Of a stretch of DNA of 64,000 bases, positions 5,643 to 61,830 are shown one piece after another. Position 1 is the stretch's first letter, and every line of letters starts with the position of its first letter. Source of the DNA: Vicinamibacterales bacterium (GTDB lineage: Bacteria; Acidobacteriota; Vicinamibacteria; Vicinamibacterales; UBA2999); the NCBI GenBank assembly GCA_036507475.1, contig DATCJA010000022.1, positions 23,093 through 87,092 on the forward strand, written 5' to 3'. A program made the position numbers and the translations under genes. The notes beneath the pieces were generated by a model. It made no database searches. It was not told the DNA's origin and saw nothing but the letters and a program-made list of their open reading frames with translations.

Positions 5643-6707
5643 CTACTTTGCATTTTGCATCTTACATTTTGAATTCCGTTCCGTCGCCCAGCGGACATGT
5701 TCGCGAACCATTGGATCGCGAGCTGATGGGCGTTCGTCGCTCCCCTCGACAAGTGCGGCCACGGCTGCGGTCTGGTGAGTATTTCCGATGGCCACAGCGA
5801 GATTGCGGCGCAAGCCGATCAGTTTCGCGCGCGTCATCGCGCTTCCTTTCGTGAGCGCACGCAATTCGTTGTCGGACCGCAGCCAGAGATCGACAAGCCG
5901 CGGCATGTCGAGGCCGGGTCGCGGCTGCCATGCCGTCTCATCCGACTGGGGCGACGCTTGGTTGTACGGACAGACATCCTGGCAGATATCACACCCGTAC
6001 ACGTGGTTCCCCAGCATCGCGCGAAATTGTTCGGGAATTCCGCGCTTCAGCTCGATGGTCAGGTAGGACACACACCGCGTTGCGTCGAGCACACCAGGCT
6101 CGACCAGCGCTCCAGTAGGACACGCGTCGAGGCAACGGGTGCAGGAGCCGCACTGGTCGACACCGGGAGTGTCGGGCTCGAGCGGCAGCGTGCAGATGAT
6201 CTCGGACAGGAACAGCCAGGAACCGAGGTCCTGGTTGATGAGGCAGGTGTTCTTGCCGATCCATCCCATACCCGCGTGCTGCGCATAGACGCGCTCCTGC
6301 ACGGGGCCGGTATCAACATACGCGCGGGCATCGAAGGGGTGTGGTGACTCCGCACGCATCCATGACAACAGCAGGTCCAGCCGTGCCTTCAACACCTCGT
6401 GATAATCGTCACCCCAGGCATATCGGGAAATGGACGCGTTGTCATCGGCCGGTGCATCGGAATACGGGGGAACCGTGTTGTACACGGTGCCGGTCACGAT
6501 GACGCTCCGCGCGCCTGGCACGACGGCTCGCACGTCGGCTCGGCGATCGGCCGACCGTGCCATGTACGCCATTTCGCCGGCGTACCCCCGGCTCAGCCAT
6601 TCGCGAAGAAACGCCAGCTCGGGAAAGCTTTCAGCGGATGCAACTCCACACAGATCGAATCCGAGCTCGCGCGCTTTGGTCTTGATGGCGGCGGACGTCA
6701 GCGCCAT
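5643..6707 (-). CDS. queG: tRNA epoxyqueuosine(34) reductase
   Basis: 354-aa ORF. N-terminus AIKTKARELGFDLCGVA, two ferredoxin-type clusters (CGSCTRCLDACP, CDICQDVCP) and C-terminal HEAT-like repeats. The last 10 codons (NSKCKMQNAK) are encoded by a B-family repeat arm. Confidence 0.85.
   Translation of the reverse strand: MALTSAAIKTKARELGFDLCGVASAESFPELAFLREWLSRGYAGEMAYMARSADRRADVRAVVPGARSVIVTGTVYNTVPPYSDAPADDNASISRYAWGDDYHEVLKARLDLLLSWMRAESPHPFDARAYVDTGPVQERVYAQHAGMGWIGKNTCLINQDLGSWLFLSEIICTLPLEPDTPGVDQCGSCTRCLDACPTGALVEPGVLDATRCVSYLTIELKRGIPEQFRAMLGNHVYGCDICQDVCPYNQASPQSDETAWQPRPGLDMPRLVDLWLRSDNELRALTKGSAMTRAKLIGLRRNLAVAIGNTHQTAAVAALVEGSDERPSARDPMVREHVRWATERNSKCKMQNAK
5647..5675. repeat. 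B-family (TGCAAAA heptamer) periodic arm, single copy of the arm, inside the queG 3' end
   Basis: TTTGCATTTTGCATCTTACATTTTGAATT. Compare the 20826-20853 arm TTTGAATTTTGCATTTTGCATTTTGCAT. Confidence 0.7.
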
Positions 6708-13227: not shown

Positions 13228-13262
13228 CGCCTTCCTTCCCTCTCGATTTGCTCCCAAACGGG

Positions 13263-13322
13263 CCACGGAGTCACGGAGACACAGAGAAGATCTGGTTTCT
13301 CCGTGTCTCTGCGTCTCCGTGG
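13263..13322. repeat. A-family complete hairpin
   Basis: CCACGGAGTCACGGAGACACAGAGAA - GATCTGGT - TTCTCCGTGTCTCTGCGTCTCCGTGG, between pirin and acnA. Confidence 0.8.
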
Positions 13323-13340
13323 CCTGTCTGAGCCGAAAGC

Positions 13341-16130: not shown

Positions 16131-16239
16131 GGCTTTAGGCTTTCGACTCTGGGCTCTTGGCCTCTCGTCTGGGCCTGTTCTGCGATGAGCTGCTTCGTCA
16201 CCGCCTAGAGCCTATAGCCCAGAGCCCAGAGCCTAGAGC
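16131..16239. repeat. C-family (CTAGAGCC/GGCTTTAG) periodic-arm hairpin
   Basis: Left arm GGCTTTAGGCTTTCGACTCTGGGCTCTTGGCC..., right arm GCCTAGAGCCTATAGCCCAGAGCCCAGAGCCTAGAGC. Lies between the ABC operon end and the acnA start. Confidence 0.75.
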
Positions 16240-20260: not shown

Positions 20261-20772
20261 CGGGTCTCCAGAATCGTGTGTACCTGGCGAACGAACGCCT
20301 CGACCGGCATGGGCCGGCGCGCCGAGTCGCCGCGGACGACACGTTCGGCGCCGGGCCCCTGGGCTGTGACCGGCGCGGGCGTCACGATTGCGCGTGCGGC
20401 GGCATCGCGTGTAACGCGGTATACGCCCTGACTCAAGCCGAACAACGTGGGTATCGCGGGCCCCCGCACGCGCAGGAAGACGACGACCTCGTCGCCCTGA
20501 GCGAACTCGGGGGCGCCGACGACCACCCGGCGATATCTGCCGACCTGCCCGTTAGGAACACAGAAGGTCACGTTTGCGCCGGCCGACGGAGAGCCCTTCA
20601 ACGCCTCGATCACCTGCACGGTCACGAGGCTCTCGATCGCCCGCTGCGGCCCCGTGAGCGCGGAACTCGTGTGAATCACCCGGCCGTGGACGATCATCCC
20701 CGCTTCGGTGACGACGGTCGTGAAATCGGCAGGAAGGAGGACGGTGGCTGAGGCGGGCCGGGCGATCGTCAT
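20257..20772 (-). CDS. hypothetical protein (possibly secreted if translation starts at 20853)
   Basis: The ORF track frame runs 20257..20853. The conservative start is ATG 20772 (MTIARPASATVLL). The extension to 20853 is encoded entirely by the B-family hairpin and reads like a signal peptide. The stop overlaps the matrixin gene start. Confidence 0.4.
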   Translation of the reverse strand: MTIARPASATVLLPADFTTVVTEAGMIVHGRVIHTSSALTGPQRAIESLVTVQVIEALKGSPSAGANVTFCVPNGQVGRYRRVVVGAPEFAQGDEVVVFLRVRGPAIPTLFGLSQGVYRVTRDAAARAIVTPAPVTAQGPGAERVVRGDSARRPMPVEAFVRQVHTILETR

Positions 20773-20853
20773 GCAAAATGCAAAATGCAAAATGCAAACA
20801 ACGCTGAAACACCTCCGATCCACCGTTTGAATTTTGCATTTTGCATTTTGCAT
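20771..20853. repeat. B-family complete hairpin
   Basis: 28-nt arms ATGCAAAATGCAAAATGCAAAATGCAAA and TTTGAATTTTGCATTTTGCATTTTGCAT are complementary at 27 of 28 positions, with a 27-nt spacer. Confidence 0.85.
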
Positions 20854-20874
20854 TAGCTGGATCCACCTCTCTCT

Positions 20875-22023: not shown

Positions 22024-24366
22024 CTACTGCGGCTTGATGAACAGCTTGTCGTCGAGAGGAGTGTTGAAGGCGACCTTGGTGAGCGTTCGCGAAAGGATGA
22101 GATTTCCACTCCGGCGCACATCGGCCCTGAACGGAACCTGCACACCGTCGACGGCGCGGTAGTCGAAAAACAGTTCTTCAGCCTCTATCGGCCGGCCGTC
22201 GGGTCCCGGCGTCTGAAAAATCTGGCGGACGACGAGCGCTCCGGCGTCCACGTACAGCTTGACCGGTGGCAGCTGCGCGCCGCTGATCTCGAGGACCTTG
22301 AGCACCTGTCCACCGCCCCCTTCTTCCGGGAGCAAGCGCATCGCCAGCCGTCCTTCAGCCGCGGCGACGAGCATCGGAATCATGTCGCGACGCACGCTGG
22401 CGGCAAAGTCGTCGCGCATTCCGGGTGGGGCCTCATGGACACCACCGGGATCGCGTGCCCAGGCGTGGCCACCGTTGTACACCTGCACGACCTCTGCGCC
22501 GGCCACAGTGGCATCGACGCGAAATTTGTCCGGGTAGACGACATAGGTGCGGGTCGACGACGCCAGCGGCTGGTCGCTCATGTGAAAGGTGGTGTCAGCT
22601 TCGGCAACGACCGTGCGCACCTTCTTCAGCACATCGAGGCCGCCTTTGGCGTCGATGACACGTTTCAGAACTGCACTAGCGTTCGGATCGCTCGGAACGT
22701 TCGGAGCGTTCGAAACGTTGGGGTTCACCTGCGACCTCGTGTACGCCAACTGACGCGAACGAAACGATTCGAACGACTCGAACGGCTTGAACGATCCGAA
22801 CGGTCCGAACGGTTCGTTCGTCTGTGCCCGCCGCGTCTCGCGCCTGAGCGTCGCCGACATCAGGTCGAGATCCTGGATGGGGATAATCTCGACATCAGAG
22901 AAACCCACGCGGCGCAGCTGTGGAACGAAGGTTGACGCATCCCCAACGAGGACGATCGACAGGCGATCCGCCCGGACATACTGGCGCGCGACGCGCTGGA
23001 TGTCATCGGGCGTCACCGCCTGCACGCGCTCCCGAAAAGTGCCGATCTCCTCGACCGGCAGCTCGTAAAACACGACGTTCAACACTTGCGTGGCAATGTC
23101 GTTTGGCGTCTCGATGGTCAGGGGAAAGCTGCCAGCGAGGTACGCCTGAGCGTCGGACAGTTCCCGTTCGAACACGCGTTCGCGCTGCAGCCGCGAGACT
23201 TCTTCCAGCGTCAGACGCAGCGTCTCACCCGTCGTCTCCGTGCGCGTGTTCGTCTCAGCCACGAAGTGACCGGACTGCTTGCGCGTTTCGGCATCGGCCT
23301 GGGCCCCGTACGTCAGCCCGCGCTCGGAACGCAGCACACGGTGCAGGCGGTTGGCGCCCTCGCCGCCAAGAATCTTCATGGCAAGATCGAAGGCCATGTA
23401 ATCGGGATGCTTCCTGGGAATAGCAAGCTGGCCGACGCGGATTTCCGTCTGCACCGCATCTGGCTTGTCCACGACCACGACCCGGCGCGTCGGTTGCGGC
23501 GGATCGACGACCTTCACCGCGGGCACTTCTGCACGAGGCCAACCATCAAACACTCGCTCGGCCGCGGCGAACGCCTCGTCGCTTGTCACGTCGCCGACGA
23601 CCGCGAGAACCATGTTGTTGGGAACGAAGTGGCGGCGGTGATACTCCTGCAGATCGGCTCGGGTGATCCCCGCAAGCGTCTCGGGCGTCCCACTATTCGG
23701 CAGCCCGTAGGGGTGAAACCCGTAAACCAGCCGCTCGAAGAGCACGCTGGCGATGTAGTCGGGGTCGTTGCCGCTGACCTGCAGACTGGAAATGGCCTGC
23801 TGCTTCTGACGCTCGATCTCTTCAGCAGCGAATGCGGGGTTGCGCACGACGTCCGACAGCATGTTCATTCCGACGCCGAACGAATCCTTCATCACGATCA
23901 CATTGACAAAGGTGAGGTCGGAACCGGATCCGGTGCCGAGCGCGCCGCCGATGAAATCGATCTCGTCCGCGATCTGCTCTGCCGATTTCGTGGTGGTCCC
24001 CTGGTCGAGCAGCGCGGCAGCCAGGCTGGCGACGCCCACCTTGCCGGGCGGATCCTGCACCGACCCGGTACGCACGAGCAGACGCATGCTCACGGCCGGC
24101 TGCTCATGATGCAGCACGGCAATGACCTGCATGCCGTTCTGCAGTGTGCGTACTTCATAGGGCGGGAATTTGACGTCCCGTGCGGACAGCGGCCGTGGGG
24201 GGCGTTCGGTCGGCCACAGAACGAACCGGCCGTCCGGCATGCGATCGACCTGCGCGCCCAGCAGGGCGCCGCACAGCAGCACCGCCAACATTCCAGCTCC
24301 CGACCTCCGAAGCAGCCGGGAGTACGCGCCATTCGAGCCAGCCGTCGGGAGTTGGGCGTTCATCAT
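22024..24366 (-). CDS. M16 peptidase, non-catalytic-type subunit, fused to a C-terminal about 270-aa LolA-like domain
   Basis: 780-aa ORF with M16 N- and C-domains but no HxxEH (the region reads GVASLAAALLDQGT). After about residue 500 comes a repeat-encoded linker (NEPFGPFGSFKPFESFESF...NPNVSNAPNVPSDPNA), then an extra domain. Confidence 0.75.
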   Translation of the reverse strand: MMNAQLPTAGSNGAYSRLLRRSGAGMLAVLLCGALLGAQVDRMPDGRFVLWPTERPPRPLSARDVKFPPYEVRTLQNGMQVIAVLHHEQPAVSMRLLVRTGSVQDPPGKVGVASLAAALLDQGTTTKSAEQIADEIDFIGGALGTGSGSDLTFVNVIVMKDSFGVGMNMLSDVVRNPAFAAEEIERQKQQAISSLQVSGNDPDYIASVLFERLVYGFHPYGLPNSGTPETLAGITRADLQEYHRRHFVPNNMVLAVVGDVTSDEAFAAAERVFDGWPRAEVPAVKVVDPPQPTRRVVVVDKPDAVQTEIRVGQLAIPRKHPDYMAFDLAMKILGGEGANRLHRVLRSERGLTYGAQADAETRKQSGHFVAETNTRTETTGETLRLTLEEVSRLQRERVFERELSDAQAYLAGSFPLTIETPNDIATQVLNVVFYELPVEEIGTFRERVQAVTPDDIQRVARQYVRADRLSIVLVGDASTFVPQLRRVGFSDVEIIPIQDLDLMSATLRRETRRAQTNEPFGPFGSFKPFESFESFRSRQLAYTRSQVNPNVSNAPNVPSDPNASAVLKRVIDAKGGLDVLKKVRTVVAEADTTFHMSDQPLASSTRTYVVYPDKFRVDATVAGAEVVQVYNGGHAWARDPGGVHEAPPGMRDDFAASVRRDMIPMLVAAAEGRLAMRLLPEEGGGGQVLKVLEISGAQLPPVKLYVDAGALVVRQIFQTPGPDGRPIEAEELFFDYRAVDGVQVPFRADVRRSGNLILSRTLTKVAFNTPLDDKLFIKPQ
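22679..22820. repeat. H-family (CGAACG, 9-nt period) inverted periodic repeat embedded in frame in the M16 gene
   Basis: Left arm (A/G)CGTTCGGA-type units at 22679-22726. Right arm CGA(N)TCGAA / CGGTCCGAA units at 22755-22820. Translated as ..NPNVSNAPNVPSDPNA.. and ..EPFGPFGSFKPFESFESF.. Confidence 0.75.
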
Positions 24367-28460: not shown

Positions 28461-28519
28461 CAAAACCGTAGGGCGGGCCTTCACGGCCCGCCTGGCGCGG
28501 CGTAAAGCCGCGCCCTACG
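28461..28519 (-). terminator. tandem GC-rich hairpins followed by T-run, downstream of the small membrane-protein gene
   Basis: The minus strand reads CGTAGGGCGCGGC-TTTAC-GCCGCGCC-A-GGCGGGCC-GTGAA-GGCCCGCCCTACGG-TTTTG. Two 8-bp stems are enclosed by an outer CGTAGG/CCTACG pairing. Confidence 0.5.
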
Positions 28520-37757: not shown

Positions 37758-37783
37758 AAGAGGTGAGACTACATCAAACGAGC

Positions 37784-37824
37784 GGGATCCGGGACCCGGG
37801 ACCTGGGATCCCGGATCCCGGTCC
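37784..37824. repeat. periodic palindromic element (GGGATCC/GGGACCC heptamers)
   Basis: GGGATCCGGGACCCGGGACCTGGGATCCCGGATCCCGGTCC, between the rpoZ start and the hsp20 stop. Confidence 0.7.
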
Positions 37825-43395: not shown

Positions 43396-44310
43396 GTGGA
43401 TTCCTCGTTCAACGCATACATCCAATCGCGCCGCGCAGAAGTTAACGCCGCGTTGGCCGCCGCCCTCCCTGCTCCGCCCGACTGCCCCGCCGTGGTCGCC
43501 GACGCGATGCGGTACAGCATCACGGCCGGCGGAAAACGGCTGCGGCCGATCCTGTGCTTGGCCAGTGCCGAGGCAGTGGGCGGCGACCGCTCGGTTGCAA
43601 TGCCCGCGGCGTGCGCGATCGAATTGATCCACACCTATTCGCTGATTCACGACGATCTGCCCGCCATGGACAACGACACGATGCGGCGCGGGCAGCCGAC
43701 GCTGCACGTCGTTGTAGGCGAAGGGATGGCCATTCTCGCCGGCGACGGCCTGCTCACTGAGGCGTTCGCGCTGATGGCACGTGCGCCCGAGAGCAGCGAC
43801 CCCATCACGCATTCACGCAAGCTTCGCGTCATTGGCGTGGTCGCCCGCGCCGCCGGCCCAAGCGGCATGGTTGGCGGCCAGGCTCTCGACCTCGCAGGCA
43901 GCGCGGCTTCTGACGAGGCGCTGCCGACCAACGCCGAGCGGCTTCGTGCAGTGCATGCCAAGAAGACCGGGGCGCTGATTCGTGCCGCCGCCATCGCCGG
44001 CGCCATCATGGGCGGCGGCGACGATGGTGTCCTCGCCACGATCGACGCGGCGGCGACGGAGTTCGGCCTTGCGTTTCAAATCATCGACGACATCCTCGAT
44101 GTCGAAGGCGCCCCTGCGACACTGGGCAAGACCGTCGGGAAGGATGCGGCTGCGGGTAAGCCGACGTATCCCGCCCTGTACGGGCTCGACACGGCACGCC
44201 GGATGGCAGCCGAGTGCGTGGAGCGGGCAGAACGCAGTCTTCGCTCGGCGCGTCTTGCGGATTCACAACTGATGGGCATCGGCCAATGGATAGTGGATAG
44301 ATCGAATTGA
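43396..44310 (+). CDS. ispA: polyprenyl (farnesyl/geranylgeranyl) diphosphate synthase
   Basis: 304-aa ORF with a GTG start. First DDxxD (LIHDDLPAMDNDTMRRG) and second (FQIIDDILD) motifs. Confidence 0.85.
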   Translation: MDSSFNAYIQSRRAEVNAALAAALPAPPDCPAVVADAMRYSITAGGKRLRPILCLASAEAVGGDRSVAMPAACAIELIHTYSLIHDDLPAMDNDTMRRGQPTLHVVVGEGMAILAGDGLLTEAFALMARAPESSDPITHSRKLRVIGVVARAAGPSGMVGGQALDLAGSAASDEALPTNAERLRAVHAKKTGALIRAAAIAGAIMGGGDDGVLATIDAAATEFGLAFQIIDDILDVEGAPATLGKTVGKDAAAGKPTYPALYGLDTARRMAAECVERAERSLRSARLADSQLMGIGQWIVDRSN

Positions 44311-44396
44311 CGAATTGACGGATTTGATTGACGACTTGGATTTGCGAATGGCCAACCCTCAATCCGTAGATCCGTAGATCCGTAAATTCGTCAATG
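44304..44396. repeat. periodic-arm hairpin (GAATTGAC / CCGTAGAT octamers)
   Basis: Left GAATTGACGAATTGACGGATTTGATTGACGACTTGGATTTGCG, right CAATCCGTAGATCCGTAGATCCGTAAATTCGTCAATG. Overlaps the ispA stop (44308-44310) and the tlyA ATG (44394). Confidence 0.75.
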
Positions 44397-53883: not shown

Positions 53884-53960
53884 AGGCGCGTAGCTCAGTT
53901 GGTTAGAGCGCCTCCCTGACACGGAGGAGGTCAGTGGTTCGAGTCCACCCGCGCCTACCA
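53884..53960 (+). tRNA. tRNA-Val (anticodon GAC), CCA encoded
   Basis: Manual cloverleaf fold. Acceptor AGGCGCG/CGCGCCT; D arm GCTC-AGTTGGTTA-GAGC; anticodon arm CCTCC-CTGACAC-GGAGG; T arm AGTGG-TTCGAGT-CCACC; discriminator A plus CCA. Confidence 0.93.
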
Positions 53961-54147
53961 ACCCTCGCTCACACGCGCCGGCCTGAAATCAGAAACCGGC
54001 GACGCGAGCTTCGGTTGGCAAGCCCGGAACGGCTTGTCCACCGTAGCGCGGAGCGCGAAGGTGGGCTGGCAAGCCAAGCGCGAAGGTTGCGCGCCGAAGC
54101 TCGCGCAGCGAGCGAAGGCGGGCCATGCGAAGTCCCGATAGCAATTC
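53961..54147 (+). promoter_or_regulatory. structured spacer/leader upstream of thrS
   Basis: 12-bp perfect long-range inverted repeat CGCGAGCTTCGG (54003-54014) / CCGAAGCTCGCG (54094-54105). It encloses GGCAAGCC/GGCTTGTCC and GGTGGGCTGGCAAGCC segments that can pair alternatively. Four GCGAAGG-like repeats are present. Confidence 0.3.
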
Positions 54148-56121
54148 ATGAGCGACGTCACCATCACGCTTCCGGACGGCTCCAGCCGCGTCGTCCCGGT
54201 TGGCACGTCCGTCCGAGACGTGGCCGCAGGAATCTCCCCGCGGCTGGCGAAAGCCGCCCTGGCAGCCGCCGTCGACGATCGGCTCGTCGATTTGTCGTTC
54301 CGTCTCGATAACGACGCGAAGCTCCGGATCATCACGCCGGACAGCGCCGAAGCGCTGCCTATCTATCGCCACAGCACGGCGCATCTGCTGGCGGCGGCCG
54401 TGACCAATCTGTTTCCGGGCGTCCAGTGCGGCATCGGGCCGGCCATCGAAGAGGGGTTCTTCTACGACTTCGTGGTGCCGCGTCCGTTCATCCCGGAGGA
54501 CCTCGATGCCATCGAGCAGCGGATGCGGGAGATGGCGCAGCAGGATCTGGCCTACGAGCGGCAGATGTGGCCCCGCGAGGAAGCTCGAACGTTCTTCGGC
54601 GGCCGCGGCGAACCGCTCAAGGTGCAGCTGATCGACGAGAAAGCAGAAGGGCAATCCGAGGTTTCCTGCTACACGATCAAGGACCGCGACACGTTCGTCG
54701 ATTTCTGTATCGGGCCGCACGTACCCTCGACCGGACGGCTCAAGGCGTTCAAGCTGCTCAGCACATCGAACGCATACTGGAAGGGCGACGCGCGCAACCA
54801 GCCGATGCAGCGCATCTACGGTACGGCGTTCTTCTCGGAAAAGGAGTTGCAGGCGTACCTGCATCGCATCGAAGAAGCGAAGAAGCGCGATCACCGGAAG
54901 ATCGGCCGAGAGCAGAAGCTGTTCATGTTTCACCCCTGGGCACCGGGGGAGGCGTTCTGGCTCGAAAAGGGCACCATCATCTACAACACGCTCGCCGACT
55001 ACATGCGGAGGGTGCTGGCTCCCGCCGGGTATGTGGAAGTCAAGGCGCCAATCGTCTTCAACAAGGCGCTCTGGGAAACGTCCGGACACTGGCAGCATTA
55101 CCGCCAGAACATGTTTCTCGTCGAAAGCGAAAACGAGCAGATGGGGCTGAAGGCGATGAATTGCCCCGGCCACTTCCTGATGTACGCCAGCGAGGTGCGG
55201 AGCTACCGCGACCTGCCGATCCGTTTCCACGAGCAGACCCCACTGCACCGCAATGAGGCATCCGGCGTACTGTCCGGGCTGACGCGCGTCCGTCAGTTCA
55301 GTCAGGACGACGCGCACTGCTTCGTCATGGAGTCGCAAATCGGAGAAGAGGTCGAGCGGCTGCTGCGACTGGTCCAGCGCGTGTACGCCGACTTCGGCCT
55401 TATGCCCGAGATGAAGCTGTCGACGCGACCGCCCGAATTCCTTGGTACCGTCGAAACGTGGAATCACGCTGAGGCGGACCTGAAGCGCGCCCTGGAGGCG
55501 GCAGGCGCGCCTTATACCGTGAACGAAGGTGACGGCGCGTTCTATGGGCCCAAGATCGATTTCGACGTCACCGACGCCATCGGACGGAAGTGGCAATGCG
55601 CGACGATTCAGCTCGACTACATGCAGGCGGACCGGTTCAATCTGACGTATGTTGGCGCCGATAACGCGGAGCATCGGCCCGTTATCATTCACCGCGCGAT
55701 CTTCGGCAGCTTCGAGCGATTCATCGCGTTGCTGATCGAGCACTTTGCGGGTGCGTGGCCGCTATGGCTTGCGCCCGTGCAGGCGGTCGTTCTACCGATT
55801 TCCGACCGGCACCTTGCCTACGCCCGCGCAGTGATGGGCCGCTTGGCGTCCGCTGGGCTGCGGGCCGAACTCGACGAGCGGCAGGAGAAGATTGGCTATA
55901 AGATCCGGGAAGCGCAGCTGCAGAAGGTCCCGTACATGCTGGTGACGGGCGATCGCGAGGCAGCCGACGGCACGATTTCGGTGCGCAGCCGGTCTTCGGG
56001 CGATCTGGGACCCCGCAGCGTCGAGGATTTCTTGCGGACCGCGCTGGATGAAATCGCGCGCAAGGATCTCGGCGTCAAACCGACTGCACACGTACAGACC
56101 GCCGAGGCCGCGGAGGCCTGA
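54148..56121 (+). CDS. thrS: threonine--tRNA ligase
   Basis: 657-aa ORF with TGS domain, editing domain ([11 protein letters not shown]), class II core and anticodon-binding domain. Confidence 0.97.
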
Positions 56122-56143
56122 GGCTCAGGCCCCAAGGCCTGCG
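56104..56143. repeat. 8-nt periodic GGCC-rich element spanning the thrS stop
   Basis: GAGGCCGC GGAGGCCT GAGGCTCA GGCCCCAA GGCCTGCG, with GGCCTGAG/CTCAGGCC self-complementarity. Confidence 0.55.
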
Positions 56144-56153
56144 AGGAGGAGTT

Positions 56154-56753
56154 ATCGCTTTCGACCGTTCGCCCCGCCGTGACGATCGCACACGCATCAA
56201 CGAGCGCATTCGGGTGCGCGAGATCCGCGTCATTGATGAAAGCGGACAGCAGCTCGGGATCATGGCGCCTCCTCAGGCGCTTGTGATTGCCAAGCAGAAA
56301 GGGCTGGACCTGGTCGAGATCTCGCCGACTGCAGTGCCGCCTGTGTGCCGAATCATGGATTTCGGCAAGTACCAGTACCAGGAGCAGAAGCGGACCCGGG
56401 AAGCCAAGAAACACCAGCGCGTCATCGAGGTCAAGGAGATCAAGTTCCGGCCGAAGGTGGACGAGCACGACTACCAGTTCAAGAAGAAGCACATCGAGCG
56501 CTTCCTGGCCGACGGCGACAAGGTCAAGGCGACGATTTTCTTTCGCGGCCGCGAGATGGCACATCCGGATATCGGACAGCGCATCCTTGAACGGCTGATG
56601 GGCGAACTCGCGGATGTAGCGATGCCGGAGACGAACCCGCGGATGGAAGGCAACCAGATGCACGTGATTCTAAGTCAGCGCACGGGACGCAAAGCCGCGG
56701 CAAAGCCACGATCCCAGGAGGCAGCGCCAGAGCCTGCGGCGACGGAGGACTGA
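56154..56753 (+). CDS. infC: translation initiation factor IF-3, probable AUC start
   Basis: The ORF track begins at GTG 56214 ([16 protein letters not shown]). The in-frame upstream codons read [20 protein letters not shown], which is the conserved IF-3 N-terminus. The only start-like codon behind the GGAGGAG SD (56145-56151) is ATC 56154. Confidence 0.8.
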
Positions 56754-56754
56754 A

Positions 56755-56829
56755 TTAGGCTTTCGGCTGTAGGCTTTGGCCAGAACCCAGAGTCGCCTTA
56801 AGCCTAGAGCCCAAAGCCTAGAGCCCAAA
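56755..56829. repeat. C-family periodic-arm hairpin (infC|rpmI spacer)
   Basis: TTAGGCTTTCGGCTGTAGGCTTTGGCC ... GCCTTAAGCCTAGAGCCCAAAGCCTAGAGCCCAAA. Shares units with 16131-16239. Confidence 0.75.
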
Positions 56830-56833
56830 ACAA

Positions 56834-57031
56834 ATGCCCAAACTCAAAACACATCGCGGCGCCGCGAAGCGCTTCAAGAAGACCGGCACCGGAAAAATCC
56901 TGCGTGGAGCGGCATTCAAACGTCATATTCTGACCGGCAAGACCACGAAGCTGAAGCGCAAGATGCGCAAACTCCGGCAGGTCGCCGATCCGGACGCGCC
57001 GAAGCTGCAGCGGATGCTGCCCTACAAGTGA
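56834..57031 (+). CDS. rpmI: 50S ribosomal protein L35
   Basis: 65-aa [25 protein letters not shown]... Confidence 0.95.
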
Positions 57032-57037
57032 CGCGCG

Positions 57038-57107
57038 AAATGCAAAATGCAGGATGCAAAATGCAAACACTGCATCGTTTGAAATTATGCATTTTGAATT
57101 TTGAATT
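57038..57107. repeat. B-family periodic-arm hairpin (rpmI|rplT spacer)
   Basis: AAATGCAAAATGCAGGATGCAAAATGCAAA ... TTTGAAATTATGCATTTTGAATTTTGAATT. Confidence 0.7.
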
Positions 57108-57122
57108 ACAGGATCGAGGACC

Positions 57123-57494
57123 ATGCCAAGAGTAAAAAGAGGGACCGTCCGCCGCGCCAAGCGTAAGAAGCTCCTTGCGCGCGCGAAAGGCTTTTACCAG
57201 ACCAAGAGCAAGCTGTATCGCGCCGCCAAAGAAGCGGTCGACACCGCGGGCAAGTACGCCTTCGTCGGCCGCAAGAACAAGAAGCGCGACTTCCGACGCC
57301 TGTGGGTTGTCCGGATCAACGCCGCCGCACGCGAAAATGGACTCACGTACTCGCAACTGATGCGTGGAATGAAGGCGGCAGGCATTGCGGTCGATCGGAA
57401 GATGCTGGCCGACCTGGCCGCTACCCAAGGTGCAGCGTTCGCAAAGGTGGCGGCGCAGGCCAAGGCCGCACTTCCCGCCCAGCCTTCCGCCTAG
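57123..57494 (+). CDS. rplT: 50S ribosomal protein L20
   Basis: 123-aa [42 protein letters not shown]... Confidence 0.95.
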
Positions 57495-57584
57495 TCAATG
57501 CACAAGTCACAAGGCACAAAGCACACGTCACAAGGAACGGTGCGTTGTGACTTGAGCCCTGTGCCTTGTGACTTGTGACTTGAT
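57494..57584. repeat. periodic-arm hairpin (CACAAGT heptamers; rplT|pheS spacer)
   Basis: The left arm contains CACAAGTCACAAGGCACA. The right arm contains its exact complement TGTGCCTTGTGACTTGTG. Confidence 0.8.
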
Positions 57585-57587
57585 CGC

Positions 57588-58670
57588 ATGTCGGACCTCT
57601 CCGTGATCGAGGCGCTGCGCGCCGATTTTCGCGCGCGACTCGCCACCGCTGGCACCGACCGCGATCTCAAGACGCTGGACGATCAGTTCCTGAGCCGGCG
57701 CAGCGGGTCGGTGACGGCGCTCCTCAAGCAAATCGCGACGGTGCCGGCCGGGGAGCGGCGGCAATTCGGCCAGCTCGTCAACGCGCTCAAGACGGAAATC
57801 GAAGCAGCGTTGGAGGAAAGACGCGCCGCGGTCGAAGCGGCGCACGCCCCCGCCGGCGCCATGGACGTCACCCTCGCGAGCCGTGAGATCCCGATCGGCC
57901 GCATCCACCCGTTGATGCGTGTGCGGCAGCAGGTGGAAGACATCTTCAGCCACATGGGCTACGAGATTCTCGAGGGCCCTGAAGTCGAGGACGATTACCA
58001 CAACTTCGAGGCCCTCAACATGCCGCCGGATCATCCCGCGCGCGACATGCAGGACACGCTGTACCTTGGCGTCCCCATTGTCGGCGGCACGTGGGGCGCT
58101 CACGGCGGCACGCTGCCGGCAGCCCAGGTCCGGGCTGCGACGCTGCTCCGCACTCACACATCTGCGATGCAGATCCGGTACATGAAGACGTTTCCACCAC
58201 CGATCCGCATCATCGTCCCTGGACGCGTGTACCGCCGCGACAACCTGGATCTGAGTCACACACCGATGTTCCAGCAGTTCGAAGGGCTCGTAGTCGGCCA
58301 CGGCGTCACGCTGGCCGATCTCAAGGGCACGTTCGAGGCGATGCTGCGCCAATTGTTTGGCGACGTGAAGGTACGACTGCGTCCGAGTTTCTTTCCCTAC
58401 ACCGAACCGAGCGCGGAGGTGGATATCAGTTGTCAAAGCTGCGCGGGATCGGGCTGCGGCACCTGCAAACACACCGGCTGGCTCGAGATTCTGGGCAGCG
58501 GGATGGTGCATCCGGCCGTCTTCGAAGCCGTGGGCTACGACCCTGAACAGGTGACCGGATTTGCCTTCGGCATGGGGATGGAGCGCGTGGCCATGCTGAA
58601 GTACGGCGTCGATGACATCCGTCTGTTCTACGAAAACGACCTCCGATTCCTGGAGCAGTTTCCGCTGTGA
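57588..58670 (+). CDS. pheS: phenylalanine--tRNA ligase subunit alpha
   Basis: 360-aa ORF with class II motifs (HPARDMQDTLY, FRPSFFPYTEPSAEVD, GMGMERVAMLKYG). Confidence 0.95.
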   Translation: MSDLSVIEALRADFRARLATAGTDRDLKTLDDQFLSRRSGSVTALLKQIATVPAGERRQFGQLVNALKTEIEAALEERRAAVEAAHAPAGAMDVTLASREIPIGRIHPLMRVRQQVEDIFSHMGYEILEGPEVEDDYHNFEALNMPPDHPARDMQDTLYLGVPIVGGTWGAHGGTLPAAQVRAATLLRTHTSAMQIRYMKTFPPPIRIIVPGRVYRRDNLDLSHTPMFQQFEGLVVGHGVTLADLKGTFEAMLRQLFGDVKVRLRPSFFPYTEPSAEVDISCQSCAGSGCGTCKHTGWLEILGSGMVHPAVFEAVGYDPEQVTGFAFGMGMERVAMLKYGVDDIRLFYENDLRFLEQFPL

Positions 58671-60829
58671 AGGTTCCGCTGTCGTGGCTGCGGGAGCTCG
58701 TGCCGGTGCAGGAGTCGGCGGAAGCGCTCGCGCGGACGATGTCGGTGCGCGGTTTCGCCGTCGAGGGCATCGAGTACGACGTCGAGTCTTCTCCTCACTC
58801 GACGAGCAACGCCAGAGCCGGGGTGCCGGAGACGACGGGGCCCGACCCGGTGATCGATTTCGAGGTGACTGCCAACCGGCCTGACTGCATGTCGATGATC
58901 GGCATTGCACGCGAGGTTGCCGTGGCATACGGGCTGCCGCTCCTGCCGCCGGGTCGCCCTCCGGCCGTACCCGGCCTAAGTACCGATGATCGTGGGGCGG
59001 GTGCCGGTCAAGCGCTCCAATCAGTTTTTTCCGATGGGTCGCCGCAAGCCGGACCCGCCACCCCGCTCGAAATCATCATCGAGGACGCCGACCTTTGCCC
59101 CCGTTATGTCGGAGCGGTTGCGGACGTCACCATCGGCTCTTCTCCCGACTGGATGCAGGCGCGGCTCCGGGCAGCCGGCATCCGCCCGATCAGCAACATC
59201 GTCGATGTCACCAACTATGTGCTGCTCGAGATGGGGCATCCGATGCACGCGTTCGATCTGCCCAAGCTCGCCGGCGCGCAGATTCACGTGAGAACAGCCC
59301 GCCCGGACGAAATGCTCAAGACGCTCGATGGCCAGTCGCGGGCGTTGTCACCTGAAATGCTCGTGATCGCGGATGCCGAGCGCGCCGTGGCAGTGGCAGG
59401 TGTCATGGGCGGCGCCGATTCCGAGGTGACGAGCTCGACGAAAGCAATCGTGCTCGAGAGCGCGTACTTCAATCCCGTGTCCGTCCGCCGGACGAGCAAA
59501 ACACTCGGACTCAAGACGGAAGCCAGCATGCGTTTCGAACGCGGCGCCGACCCTGCTCTACCGGTGGACGCGATGAGGAGGGCGGTCGCGCTGATTGAAC
59601 TGATTGGCGCCGGGCGCGGCCGGGGTGCGGTCGTGGATCGCTACCCGAAACTGATCGAGCCTCGGATGCTTCGATTGAGACGGTCACGAATCGGCGCCTT
59701 GCTCGGCGCTTCGGTTCCAGATGCCGATGTGCTCCGCATCCTGGGCGGCCTCGGCTTCGCGTTGCAAGACGCCGATGACGGCTGGGAGATAACCGTCCCG
59801 ACCCGTCGAGTAGACACCGTGCGTGAGGTCGACCTCATCGAAGAGGTCGCGCGGCACTACGGCTTCGATCGCCTGCCAGTGACGTTCCCGGCACTGACAT
59901 CCGCGCCGCCTCCAGTGGATCCAACGATCGTTCGCGCCCGTCAACTGCGCGCGGTGCTGACGGCCGCCGGATTTTCGGAAGCGGTGACGTTCGGGTTCAT
60001 GAGCGAGCCGGCAGCTATCCCGTTCGTCAGCACGGGCGACCTCGTGCCGATTGCCAATCCGCTCTCGGAGAACTTTGCGGTGCTTCGGCCATCGGTGCTG
60101 CCAGGTCTCATCGACGCCCTGGCACATAACCGCCGACGCGAACAGCGCGACATCCGGCTGTTCGAAATTGGCGCGCGGTTCACGCGGTCGGATGGCGAAC
60201 GCCGCGCCGTCGCGTGCGCGTGGACCGGAATGGCGGCGCCCGAACATTGGAGCGGCTCTGGCCGTCTCGTCGATTTCTTCGACATCAAGTCGGTTGTCGA
60301 ACGTGTCTGCGAAGCCGTTGGCGTCCAGGTTCGCACGGAGCCCTCCAGCCAGGCATGGCTGACGCCAGGACAAAGGGCCGATGTTCTGGCGAATGAAGCA
60401 CGAGTCGGCGTCGTGGGTCAGCTCACCACCACCCTTGCTGACTCGCATGGGCTCCCGAGCAGCGATTCTGTATACGTCGCCGAAATCGACCTGGAAACGC
60501 TCGAACAGATCGCCGCCGGGCGCGTGGTGCGCGTGACGCCCCTGCCACGCTACCCGTCGGTCACGCGCGATATCTCTGTGGTGATCGAGAACAGCGTGAC
60601 GGCCGCCGAGATCCGGCGCACGATACAGGACATTGCACGCGCGCTTCTCGTGCGGATTAGCGAGTTCGATAGGTACCAGGGCAAGGGAATTCCCGAGGGG
60701 AGGGTCAGTCTGTCGCTGCATCTGACTTTCCGGTCATCTGACAGAACTCTTACTGACGAGGAAGTGCAAGCCACGATGGATCTCATCATTGCGGCGCTCA
60801 AAGACCGCCACCGCGCGGTTCAGCGCTAG
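58667..60829 (+). CDS. pheT: phenylalanine--tRNA ligase subunit beta (short form lacking the N-terminal OB-fold tRNA-binding domain)
   Basis: 720-aa ORF with B3_4, B5, catalytic-like and FDX-ACB domains. Between MKVPLSWLRELV...GFAVEGIEYD and VIDFEVTANRPDCMS there are only about 25 residues; the tRNA_bind domain normally sits there. Confidence 0.9.
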   Translation: MKVPLSWLRELVPVQESAEALARTMSVRGFAVEGIEYDVESSPHSTSNARAGVPETTGPDPVIDFEVTANRPDCMSMIGIAREVAVAYGLPLLPPGRPPAVPGLSTDDRGAGAGQALQSVFSDGSPQAGPATPLEIIIEDADLCPRYVGAVADVTIGSSPDWMQARLRAAGIRPISNIVDVTNYVLLEMGHPMHAFDLPKLAGAQIHVRTARPDEMLKTLDGQSRALSPEMLVIADAERAVAVAGVMGGADSEVTSSTKAIVLESAYFNPVSVRRTSKTLGLKTEASMRFERGADPALPVDAMRRAVALIELIGAGRGRGAVVDRYPKLIEPRMLRLRRSRIGALLGASVPDADVLRILGGLGFALQDADDGWEITVPTRRVDTVREVDLIEEVARHYGFDRLPVTFPALTSAPPPVDPTIVRARQLRAVLTAAGFSEAVTFGFMSEPAAIPFVSTGDLVPIANPLSENFAVLRPSVLPGLIDALAHNRRREQRDIRLFEIGARFTRSDGERRAVACAWTGMAAPEHWSGSGRLVDFFDIKSVVERVCEAVGVQVRTEPSSQAWLTPGQRADVLANEARVGVVGQLTTTLADSHGLPSSDSVYVAEIDLETLEQIAAGRVVRVTPLPRYPSVTRDISVVIENSVTAAEIRRTIQDIARALLVRISEFDRYQGKGIPEGRVSLSLHLTFRSSDRTLTDEEVQATMDLIIAALKDRHRAVQR

Positions 60830-60882
60830 GATTGTGCTACCATCGGCGCGGCAAGACTCTCCCTACAATGTGAGGCGGTGGG

Positions 60883-61158
60883 ATGGCAAAGCAGGCGGTC
60901 GCGCGCGCAATCGATCTCGACCCAATCGATCGACTGGAAGAAAAGATCAAGCTTCTCGTGAGCGTCGTCACGGGGCTCCGCGCCGATCAGGCGAAGGCAG
61001 CGGACGAGAACGGGCGTCTCATGCAGGAAATCGACGCGCTGCGCTCCCGGCTGGCCGACGCACAGGGTGCCAGCGTCGAGCTCGATGCACTCCGCGAGGA
61101 GCGCGAGGCAGTTCGGCAACGCGTTGCCGAAATGCTCTCGCATCTCGAGGCGATTTGA
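60883..61158 (+). CDS. ZapB-like coiled-coil protein
   Basis: 91-aa ORF that is all heptad-like coiled coil (LEEKIKLLVSVVTGLRADQAKAADENGRLMQEIDALRSRLADAQ), immediately upstream of zapA. Confidence 0.45.
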   Translation: MAKQAVARAIDLDPIDRLEEKIKLLVSVVTGLRADQAKAADENGRLMQEIDALRSRLADAQGASVELDALREEREAVRQRVAEMLSHLEAI

Positions 61159-61230
61159 TGTCTTTGGTCCCTGGTCTTTGGTCTTCGGTGAGCACGAGAG
61201 AGAAAAGACTAGAGACCAAAGACCAGACAT
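61158..61230. repeat. periodic-arm hairpin (GTCTTTG heptamers; zapB-like|zapA spacer)
   Basis: ATGTCTTTGGTCCCTGGTCTTTGGTCTTCGG ... AGACTAGAGACCAAAGACCAGACAT. Confidence 0.75.
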
Positions 61231-61237
61231 ATTTCCA

Positions 61238-61558
61238 ATGAGCGGTGTTGTCACCGTTGAAATCGGCGGACAGCGGTACCCAATCCGAAGCGGTCTCGAT
61301 CCGGCGTACGTCGGCGAGCTGGCCGCGTATGTCGATCAGAAGATGCGCGCCGCATCCGACGCCGCACCAACGACGGACATGCTTGGATTGGCAATTCTCG
61401 TGGCCCTCAACCTCGCTGACGAATACTTCCGGGCGCGACAAAATCAGTCCGCATCCAACGGAGAGCTCAACGAACGGGCCCTGCGGCTGGAACAGCTCGT
61501 CGATCAGATCCTGGGCGACTCCGGCGCAGGCCTCAAGGTCGGCAGCGTACGGCTGTAA
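61238..61558 (+). CDS. zapA: cell division protein ZapA
   Basis: The ORF track frame runs 61067..61558. I set the start at ATG 61238 (MSGVVTVEIGGQRYPIRSGLDPAYVGELAAYVDQKMR...LAILVALNLADEY). Confidence 0.8.
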   Translation: MSGVVTVEIGGQRYPIRSGLDPAYVGELAAYVDQKMRAASDAAPTTDMLGLAILVALNLADEYFRARQNQSASNGELNERALRLEQLVDQILGDSGAGLKVGSVRL

Positions 61559-61608: not shown

Positions 61609-61637
61609 TTGACCCGCCCTCGGCCGCGGGCTAAGAT
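61609..61637 (+). promoter_or_regulatory. sigma70-like promoter for the 6S RNA candidate
   Basis: TTGACC (61609-61614), 17-nt spacer, TAAGAT (61632-61637). Preceded by an AT-rich stretch (TTCTATTATCAACAATTTAGA). Confidence 0.5.
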
Positions 61638-61643
61638 TCGTAA

Positions 61644-61830
61644 AGCTCCTGCTTTGCTCGTGATGGTTCGGAGGCTCGTCTGAGCCAACGTCGTCACCCA
61701 AGTGAGCCGCGGGGTCGCGTGTTGTGCATGCCTCTGTGGTGAGGAAGCCTGAAACGCGGCCGATAACAGCGGTTCCACCTGCTTTAGCAGGTTCATTCGA
61801 CCTCCCCACACGGCAAAGCGGGACTGATTC
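61644..61830 (+). ncRNA. ssrS: 6S RNA candidate
   Basis: Closing stem TCCTGCTTTGC (61647-61657) / GCAAAGCGGGA (61813-61823). Second stem CGTG..GGAGG / CCTCC..CACG. Apical stem GCCGCG/CGCGGC. The bubble strands resemble E. coli 6S as I remember it: CUGAGCC at the 5' bubble, CACCUG-CUUUAG-CAGGUUCA versus CACCUUGAACCAAGGGUUCA at the 3' bubble hairpin, and a ..AUUCCC 3' end. The position after zapA matches the known zapA-ssrS synteny. Ends are approximate. Confidence 0.65.

Follow-up and report, generated by a model that had tools for sequence, protein, structure and literature searches.

Periodic heptanucleotide-repeat hairpins downstream of stop codons in Vicinamibacterales (Acidobacteriota)

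We examined the gene string thrS-infC-rpmI-rplT-pheS-pheT-zapB-zapA in a 64-kb stretch of the genome of a Vicinamibacterales bacterium (Acidobacteriota), hereafter the window, which is the part of this genome that was analysed. Four spacers of the string (infC-rpmI, rpmI-rplT, rplT-pheS and zapB-zapA) are nearly filled by a long inverted repeat built of 7-nt units. Such periodic hairpins form a lineage-wide class in Vicinamibacterales, and their arms gain and lose whole units, one arm at a time, by slipped-strand mispairing. The explanation that we favour, and hold to be somewhat probable, is that they are heptanucleotide simple-sequence-repeat (SSR) hairpins of the kind known as STRR (short tandemly repeated repetitive) sequences or inverted heptamer arrays, that is, stem-loops behind stop codons remodelled by slippage together with template switching between the arms. 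Their periodicity would then be a signature of mutation and not a feature of design.

Hairpins were located by scanning the whole window for inverted repeats without gaps, and arm periodicity by our own lag-7 autocorrelation; arrays were called by Tandem Repeats Finder (TRF), whose threshold skews the lower copy numbers, and RNA folds of the operon elements were scored against 200 dinucleotide shuffles each. Between infC and rpmI lies an element at 56755-56829 (plus strand; left arm TAGGCTTTCGGCTGTAGGCTTTGG, right arm AAGCCTAGAGCCCAAAGCCTAGAGCCC) with a unit of approximately GCCTAGA / GGCTTTR, in which 56756-56776 pairs with 56800-56820 (21 nt, 90% complementary) and which folds at -34.8 kcal/mol (z = -4.7); TRF found period 7/14 on its right arm only, and its lag-7 autocorrelation was 0.71, left and right arm alike. 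The rpmI-rplT element (57038-57107, plus strand) belongs to an ATGCAAA family and reads (AAATGCA)x4, loop, (TTTGAAT/TTTGCAT)x4, with an inverted repeat at 57046-57065 / 57088-57107 (20 nt, 80%); it is AT-rich, carries a recurrent G·A mismatch and folds weakly (-21.4 kcal/mol, z = -1.6). At rplT-pheS (57496-57583, plus strand; unit CACAAGK / MCTTGTG, 5-6 per arm), 57495-57538 pairs with 57540-57583 (44 nt, 82%; -51.1 kcal/mol, z = -7.0), and between the ZapB-like gene and zapA (61160-61228, plus strand; unit GTCTTTG / CAAAGAC), 61160-61184 pairs with 61199-61223 (25 nt, 84%; -34.3 kcal/mol, z = -5.5). TRF found period 7 on both arms of these last three elements.

The original prediction, made from the letters of the window, had described five such hairpins and placed one in every spacer of the string. 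All of the sequences that it listed are present, and four of its five elements are real, strong periodic-arm hairpins. The fifth, a GGCC-rich short-period element at 56104-56143 (plus strand) that spans the thrS stop codon just 5′ of the infC Shine-Dalgarno sequence, is weak, folding at -28.6 kcal/mol (z = -1.9) with 10 of 200 shuffles folding as well. It is kept in two relatives (L001 and L004; loci and contigs are given here by L numbers) and in all strain variants, and the orthologous site of L001 holds a TRF array, (GAGGCCT)x4. "Every spacer" proved too broad, since the pheT-zapB spacer (60830-60882) holds no element (fold z = +1.4) and pheS and pheT overlap. The proposed architecture of a periodic arm, a loop and a complementary periodic arm holds at the four spacers, where the inverted repeats are 80-90% complementary. 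The hairpins start 1-6 nt past the stop codon, as had been read, and no T run follows any arm, in line with the U-tract absence that had been noted. Pairing in several registers had also been foreseen, and the arms reach 64-97% pairing where registers are offset by exactly 7 nt, as opposed to at most 50% in others. Folding beyond that of shuffled sequence was borne out for infC-rpmI, rplT-pheS and zapB-zapA and not for the rpmI-rplT and thrS-stop elements.

Over the whole window the scan returned 14 long hairpins, nine of them with both arms periodic (period 7-9). With the elements at 57038 and 37783 included there are about 11 hairpins; if a one-armed array at 5647 is counted as well, the 64 kb hold about 12 periodic elements. 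Chance was controlled with 50 dinucleotide shuffles of the window, which held 4.2 short-period arrays against 25 observed and not one inverted array pair against at least nine periodic hairpins. An excess over shuffled sequence, the lack of which genome-wide the original prediction had named as refuting it, is thus present in the window.

Placement of the lineage and the loci of relatives came from a PheS-based scan, in which the window falls in Vicinamibacterales; the nearest loci share 93%, 90%, 83% and 81% PheS identity with it and 27 further loci 52-74%. The relatives are all metagenome-assembled, and four of their loci (OY969603, OZ242003, OY760136 and OY761475) are long-read complete chromosomes. 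Across 32 Vicinamibacterales loci (577 kb) we counted 254 short-period arrays, of which 110 have the dominant period of 7, and 31 inverted pairs, as against 97 arrays, 18 with period 7 and no peak there, and three inverted pairs in 48 outgroup loci (874 kb). Periods 8 and 9 occur besides 7, and several loci with a GC content of at least 0.69 carry no elements. Paired arms show a sharp mode at four units (58/117), with a median loop of 22 nt and a median span of 84 nt. A few arrays reach 10-20 copies (L002 11550-11693, L011 3298-3405, L021 1244-1367, L029 15255-15326 and L142 rpmI-rplT; for example (CGAACAC)x18.7 and (AGCCGAG)x10), so expansion is not strictly capped.

Strain contigs, that is, contigs from independent samples encoding an identical L35 ribosomal protein or RpoZ protein, differ from one another by whole units. 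One TTTGAAT unit is missing from the right arm of rpmI-rplT in L081 and L087, the right arm of infC-rpmI is 7 nt shorter in L086, and the hsp20-rpoZ element has one GGATCCC unit fewer in L173 and L175 (2/3 contigs). At rplT-pheS, the strain alleles differ in the left arm by an indel of three units (21 nt), the short one having two units as opposed to five and occurring in 6/10 strain contigs that cover the spacer. Every 7- or 21-nt indel is confined to one arm; the sole exception to these lengths is a 4-nt CTAG duplication at infC-rpmI in L082. Whole-unit indels in single arms of near-identical strains indicate slipped-strand gain and loss of units. Where the original prediction had suggested a footprint of slippage plus template switching, the slippage half is thus directly seen, and template switching is something that we infer from the fold and mismatch counts given below.

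At least 10 independent samples in ENA, JGI and Logan yielded identical elements. Contig L172 (1-110) begins with a fold-back at the lpxB element, at the contig end; we considered a natural inversion of this element and rejected it, as the left flank is the reverse complement of the right and the break lies at a contig end, which marks an assembly fold-back. L088 (700-810, 1230-1467) is a mosaic with breakpoints in the infC-rpmI right arm and mid-rplT; as far as mid-rplT it is identical to the window, and from there on the identity is ~78%. Being a recombinant or chimeric contig, it was dismissed as a case of concerted arm change at strain level, and its CAATGCN-arm comparison therefore holds at species level only.

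In the orthologous spacers of many relatives the architecture is kept and the units are usually different, so that units differ between relatives at one spacer while the arms stay complementary. Units at rpmI-rplT include AAATGCA, AAAAGGC, GGTAGCT, GGGACTA, GATCGCT, GAGAAGT, GAAGTTG, CAGTTGT, GGGCTAC and others. A heptamer hairpin or one-armed array occupies this spacer in about half the examined lineages or more; in other relatives, some with ~90% L20 ribosomal protein identity, the spacer is only 2-30 nt long. Some close relatives have next to nothing in such spacers, which measure 2-8 nt. The rplT-pheS element opens with TCAATGCACAA in the window, L101, L117 and L088, and its arms are CACAAGK/MCTTGTG in the window and L101 (8 copies) and CAATGCN/NGCATTG in L117 and L088; over longer distances, then, the unit changes in both arms together. 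Elements also nest. The zapB-zapA hairpin of L001 has the GTCTTTG unit of the window and a loop larger by ~170 nt that holds further hairpins, and at rplT-pheS of L001 and L004 elements sit in the loops of older ones.

We scored spacers of at least 40 nt across 641 kb for position. Periodic hairpins occupy 35 of 265 co-directional spacers, 3 of 32 convergent spacers and none of 35 divergent spacers (P ~0.003 given the spacer-length share of the last). They start a median of 6 nt past the upstream stop codon, and the next start codon follows at a median of 16 nt, with a long tail (maximum 512 nt). Nine unpaired heptamer arrays do lie in divergent spacers, from which we conclude that the repeat-making process acts on all non-coding DNA and that the hairpin form is confined to the 3′ flanks of genes. 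A first gene caller, based on GC content at third codon positions, wrongly called several operon spacers divergent, and a codon log-odds caller was used instead.

Neither strand appears to be preferred. Among 32 elements with a known transcribed strand, the better fold belongs to the sense strand in 15 and to the antisense in 17 (Wilcoxon p = 0.72), the stems of 35 operon hairpins (897 paired columns) contain 27 G·T and 34 A·C mismatches (p = 0.44), and no pairing register is privileged. Selection on the sense-strand RNA was rejected on these two asymmetry tests; with no sense bias and no privileged register, nothing indicates purifying selection on a sense RNA helix. Arm complementarity looks to be kept at the level of DNA, which is what template switching between the arms of a quasi-palindrome would achieve. 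A choice of units that puts stop codons in all three frames was likewise discarded (13/32 elements; 10.5 were expected, and the antisense strand gave 11). No canonical promoters were found at the elements. Only 6S RNA and a tRNA reach the gathering score in an Rfam scan of the window, covariance models of the L20 leader, the T-box and the Phe leader have no match at the elements, and an E-value scan of Rfam returned only sub-threshold microRNA-precursor look-alikes on the stems.

Unit sequences are shared between sites in 6.4% of pairs within a genome and 1.9% between genomes (3.3-fold). ATGCAAA recurs at 5647, 20771 and 57038 of the window, and GCCTAGA at 16203 and 56801, so the earlier statement that units are unrelated between loci holds only in part. 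The accompanying statement that there is no shared consensus gives way to several dispersed unit families, ~8 among ~12 elements in the window. The best defined has the consensus CGTAATGCAAA(x4)C-loop-GTTTGAAT(x4)TAC, always with 4+4 units, and copies at infC-rpmI (L003, L095, L102), rpmI-rplT (window, L102, L117) and lpxB (window 20771). These copies have common termini (GTAATGCAAA...TTTGMATTAC) and like loop beginnings, and two copies in L102 have a common variant third unit, AGTCAAA. An alignment of seven copies (8 rows, one in both orientations) shows no target-site duplication; the termini extend the palindrome (GTAAT...ATTAC), with no direct flanking repeat. From the shared termini and the L102 variant unit, some copy-and-paste spread is likely.

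Among 160 units the 4-mers AGCC, AGCT and CTGA are enriched and the GTAG/CGTC tag is not, and we rejected on that ground the notion that the arrays are amplified GTAG heads of repetitive extragenic palindromic (REP) elements. A GTAG-tagged REP-like double hairpin does exist at 28467-28519 of the window (CGTAGGGCGGGCC...GGCCCGCC / GGCGCGGC...GCCGCGCC...CTACG). In L004 (9917-10000) a member of this family lies at rplT-pheS, where a degenerate periodic hairpin of CACAA type encloses it in its loop, and GTAG-REP hairpins are common in relatives, where they often abut one-armed heptamer arrays (L091, L103, L108, L121, L155). No transposase or RAYT was found beside the elements examined in the window.

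The mechanism that we favour would run as follows. Each arm consists of tandem 7-nt units, typically four, which slippage would homogenise within the arm. Template switching from one arm to the other within the same molecule (quasi-palindrome correction) would keep them complementary in DNA, and occasional copying would seed a unit family into other spacers. Arrays would persist only 3′ of genes because a transcribed stem-loop is tolerated there, or is mildly useful in blocking 3′ exonucleases, as a site of processing, or for weak pausing or termination, and a stem-loop would not be tolerated in promoter-bearing divergent spacers. Several points weigh against this account. Template switching between the arms is the step that was not seen, and every RNA role of the hairpins is conjecture. 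The long persistence at rpmI-rplT, seen in about half the examined lineages or more, hints in a deletion-biased genome at a selected function, and unconstrained slippage does not predict the mode of four units, although TRF limits contribute to its low end. Slippage alone does not explain the likely copy-and-paste spread of the ATGCAAA family. Finally, the gene calls behind the position statistics, made with our own codon log-odds caller, are approximate.

We consider it rather unlikely that the hairpins are instead selected RNA elements with a secondary periodicity. They would then serve as sites for RNase III or other processing, as 3′-exonuclease barriers that give cistrons differential stability, or in translational coupling, where a ribosome stopping 1-6 nt before the stem would melt it and expose a start codon at or within its 3′ foot. 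The tight anchoring to stop codons fits such roles, as do ~28-bp stems suited to RNase III, the persistence at rpmI-rplT across deep lineages, and the start codons themselves: those of rpmI, pheS and zapA have no Shine-Dalgarno sequence and lie at most 15 nt from the last arm, and those of a 171-aa open reading frame (ORF) and tlyA lie within it. Lesage et al. reportedly found in 1992 that in E. coli the translational coupling from L35 to L20 works through mRNA structure, which we count on the same side. Stabilising and coupling have both been proposed for cyanobacterial STRR hairpins (PMC2670836). Yet folding energy and wobble mismatches show no sense asymmetry, many close relatives have hairpin-free spacers of 2-30 nt at the same junctions, elements also lie between unrelated genes and in convergent spacers, strains tolerate arms as unbalanced as 2 and 5 units at rplT-pheS, and arms can run in frame within ORFs. 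Placement right after stops, in co-directional and convergent and never in divergent spacers, would equally suit factor-independent terminators of a high-GC lineage that do without a U tract, and the rplT-pheS spacers of L005, L015 and L029 do hold a canonical hairpin-plus-T-tract, with plain GC-rich hairpins in the same spacers of other relatives (e.g. L003, L006). We nonetheless judge this very unlikely: a ~28-bp stem with a 22-nt loop and no U tract is unlike known intrinsic terminators, the rpmI-rplT stem is weak, and elements precede essential genes without an obvious promoter of their own (rpmI, rplT, zapA). Terminator-like sites in the window number 12, as expected (12.3), and none is at an element. 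The earlier argument against 3′-end structures, that the elements sit between co-transcribed genes, is weakened because they also separate unrelated genes (ABC transporter, aconitase and pirin; Hsp20 and RpoZ; LpxB and an ORF).

Spread as non-autonomous mobile hairpins similar to REPINs or MITEs, in which a trans-acting enzyme acting on single-stranded DNA hairpins disperses families that slippage only decorates, is unlikely in our view. It would account for the ATGCAAA copies in three spacers with their common termini, 4+4 units and like loop starts, the shared third unit in L102, the 3.3-fold excess of unit sharing within genomes, the filled and empty sites among relatives at ~90% L20 identity, and the nesting in older loops at rplT-pheS of L001 and L004. 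Against it, no target-site duplication was seen, the loops are otherwise unrelated, the units show no GTAG/CGTC enrichment, no transposase lies beside the elements examined, and the copies flanking rpmI could have come from local conversion followed by differential loss. Nor do the elements collapse into one REP or MITE consensus, an outcome that had been named as the test of their distinctness; ~8 families among ~12 elements are not one quasi-species. More doubtful still is an active lineage-specific system that installs 4+4-unit stem-loops after stop codons and whose products cells have co-opted, with a RAYT-like hairpin-recognising transposase of single-stranded DNA or a template-switching polymerase activity as candidate writers. 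If true, it would explain the 4-unit arms, the dispersed families, the nesting in loops and the rpmI-rplT persistence, and co-option would have produced intercistronic modules for processing or translational coupling. Chance or a metagenome-assembly artefact is effectively refuted. Hairpins do disturb assemblies, as the L172 fold-back and the L088 mosaic breakpoint illustrate, but identical elements recur in independent samples, the same architecture is found in long-read complete chromosomes, and no shuffle produced an inverted array pair. Slippage with template switching between the arms thus remains the explanation that we prefer.

The other elements of the window separate functionally unrelated co-directional genes. 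An ATGCAAA-family hairpin (20771-20854, minus strand; 4+4 units, 28/29 paired) lies between lpxB and the 171-aa ORF, whose ATG sits in the last unit. Also on the minus strand are a periodic hairpin with units GCCTAGA / GGCTYTN that separates an ABC-transporter (OpuAC) gene from aconitase (16132-16239), a hairpin of 8-nt period with unit CACGGAGA between aconitase and pirin (13261-13324), which is unchanged in seven strain contigs, and a self-complementary heptamer array, CGGGAYC, between hsp20 and rpoZ (37783-37821). A second 8-nt-period hairpin (44303-44395, plus strand) lies between a polyprenyl synthetase gene and the TlyA-like methyltransferase gene, and the one-armed TTTGCAT array of the ATGCAAA family (5647-5675, minus strand) overlaps the last codons of the upstream ORF. 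A 9-nt-period hairpin (22680-22813, minus strand) runs in frame in a 780-aa M16-peptidase-like ORF, past its M16_C domain, and encodes ...FGPFGSFKPFESFESF...NPNVSNAPNVPSDPNAS...; it is either a linker made by an SSR hairpin or the join of two former genes fused across one. In L008 (11141-11277), a ~20-unit (GATCGGC)n/(GCCGATC)n hairpin lies in frame in pheT and encodes heptapeptide repeats (DRPSAIG..., DPRSTIA...), at a loop where PheT of the window holds a low-complexity insert.

The genes of the string lie at 54148-56121 (thrS, stop TGA at 56119-56121), from a non-AUG start near 56150 to 56753 (infC), 56834-57031 (rpmI), 57123-57494 (rplT), 57588-58670 (pheS), 58667-60829 (pheT), 60883-61158 (ZapB-like gene) and 61239-61558 (zapA). 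The infC start in the window (56140-56160) and at orthologous sites is apparently non-AUG, in a conserved ...AGGAGG..(N4-6)..ATCGCTTTCGA context found Vicinamibacterales-wide; an unusual IF3 start codon is known in other bacteria and such a start fits. Directly past zapA lies a 6S RNA gene (61643-61827; Rfam, 72 bits), preceded by a promoter-like TTGACC-17-TAAGAT (together 61609-61827), and this zapA-ssrS linkage also occurs in L018 and L022. The 190 nt between a tRNA gene and thrS (53958-54147) adopt a multi-branched fold (-95.3 kcal/mol, z = -3.6) closed by long-range pairing of GCGAGCTTCGG...CCGAAGCTCGC, with repeated motifs GGCAAGCC and AGCGCGAAGG, and are a possible thrS leader with no Rfam match. 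Some relatives conserve a leader of ~110-130 nt between the post-rpmI hairpin and rplT (L018 9450-9581, L022 9375-9489, L027, L029 and L144; also L141, L147, L148, L149, L152, L159 and L165 at rpmI-rplT), one group carrying ...CAAGTCCGG...CCGGCCCCCAA... and another GTGAAGAGG...CCTGCCTCCAGCCGC. None matches the Rfam L20 leader, and they are possibly autoregulatory leaders of L20 that have not been described.

In many bacteria no long SSRs are as over-represented as heptanucleotide repeats, an excess that Mrazek et al. (cited in PMC4679880) are said to have described in 2007. Hairpins built of heptamers have been noted for decades in cyanobacteria and Xanthomonas, without an accepted origin or function, and with our findings they extend to a third phylum, unrelated to the others and made up of abundant soil bacteria. 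Dozens of mostly non-G-rich units in one four-unit post-stop architecture argue against a G-quadruplex role and for a general mechanism. Public metagenomes already offer natural allelic series, with indels of 7 and 21 nt, sites with and without an element, and units that drift in both arms, which makes the question directly testable. In practical terms, the elements break or fold back metagenome assemblies, inflate ORF calls, and can invade coding sequences in frame to give peptide repeats.

The original prediction knew of no described element class that combines these features; hairpins of 7-bp repeats are in fact known in cyanobacteria and inverted heptamer arrays in Xanthomonas. Devine et al. 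(2009) described cyanobacterial STRR sequences, usually of 7-bp repeats, that form hairpins between hupS and hupL, for which transcript stabilising or translational coupling was suggested (PMC2670836). Rehm et al. (2015) reported ~185 GGGAATC heptamer arrays per Xanthomonas genome, with 70-75 inverted pairs able to form stem-loops and a preference for four units; these arrays lie mostly between aligned ORFs and rarely between divergent ones, within 50 bp of a stop codon or overlapping it, are transcribed, and vary in length between species while the repeat type is kept (PMC4692102). MacGregor (2015) reviewed the heptanucleotide SSR excess and the proposal of polymerase slippage (PMC4679880). 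Our elements likewise have tandem 7-nt arms in inverted stem-loop pairs, whole-unit polymorphism, and a placement between aligned ORFs near stop codons with none in divergent spacers. As in STRR, the units are 7 bp long, fall into several families per genome, and form hairpins in intergenic or intercistronic positions; unlike STRR, the elements occur in Acidobacteriota, are dominated by the two-arm inverted form, and are anchored ~6 nt past stop codons. The Xanthomonas arrays share the mode of four units, the inverted pairs, the post-stop placement and the length variation, but consist of essentially one G-rich unit interpreted as a quadruplex former, whereas the units here are many and mostly without G tracts. 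Four G3 tracts on one strand are absent from the window units ATGCAAA, CACAAGT, GTCTTTG, GCCTAGA and CACGGAGA, so a G-quadruplex cannot be the common denominator. Published units (CCCCAGT, TTGGTCA, CAACAGT, GGGAATC, GGGGAYT and TAACTGA, the STRR units being reportedly those of Mazel et al. from 1990) find matches at or near shuffle expectation, and class membership therefore rests on architecture and dynamics and not on sequence homology.

REP, BIME and REPIN elements resemble the periodic hairpins as extragenic palindromes 3′ of genes in dispersed families, with a REPIN-doublet size of ~70-110 nt and with mRNA-stabiliser roles proposed there as here. They differ in that the periodic hairpins have arms made of tandem arrays, no single genome-wide consensus and no GTAG/CGTC tag, and GTAG-tagged REP-like hairpins coexist with them as a separate class. 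Slippage and quasi-palindrome mutagenesis are processes and not an element family, and together they predict whole-unit indels and the correction of one arm against the other; here, only slippage is directly seen. Template-switch mutagenesis at quasi-palindromes was reportedly described by Ripley in 1982 and by Dutra and Lovett in 2006. The literature yielded no report of such heptamer hairpins in Acidobacteria. The class is known; its presence in Acidobacteriota and the diversity of its units appear to be new.

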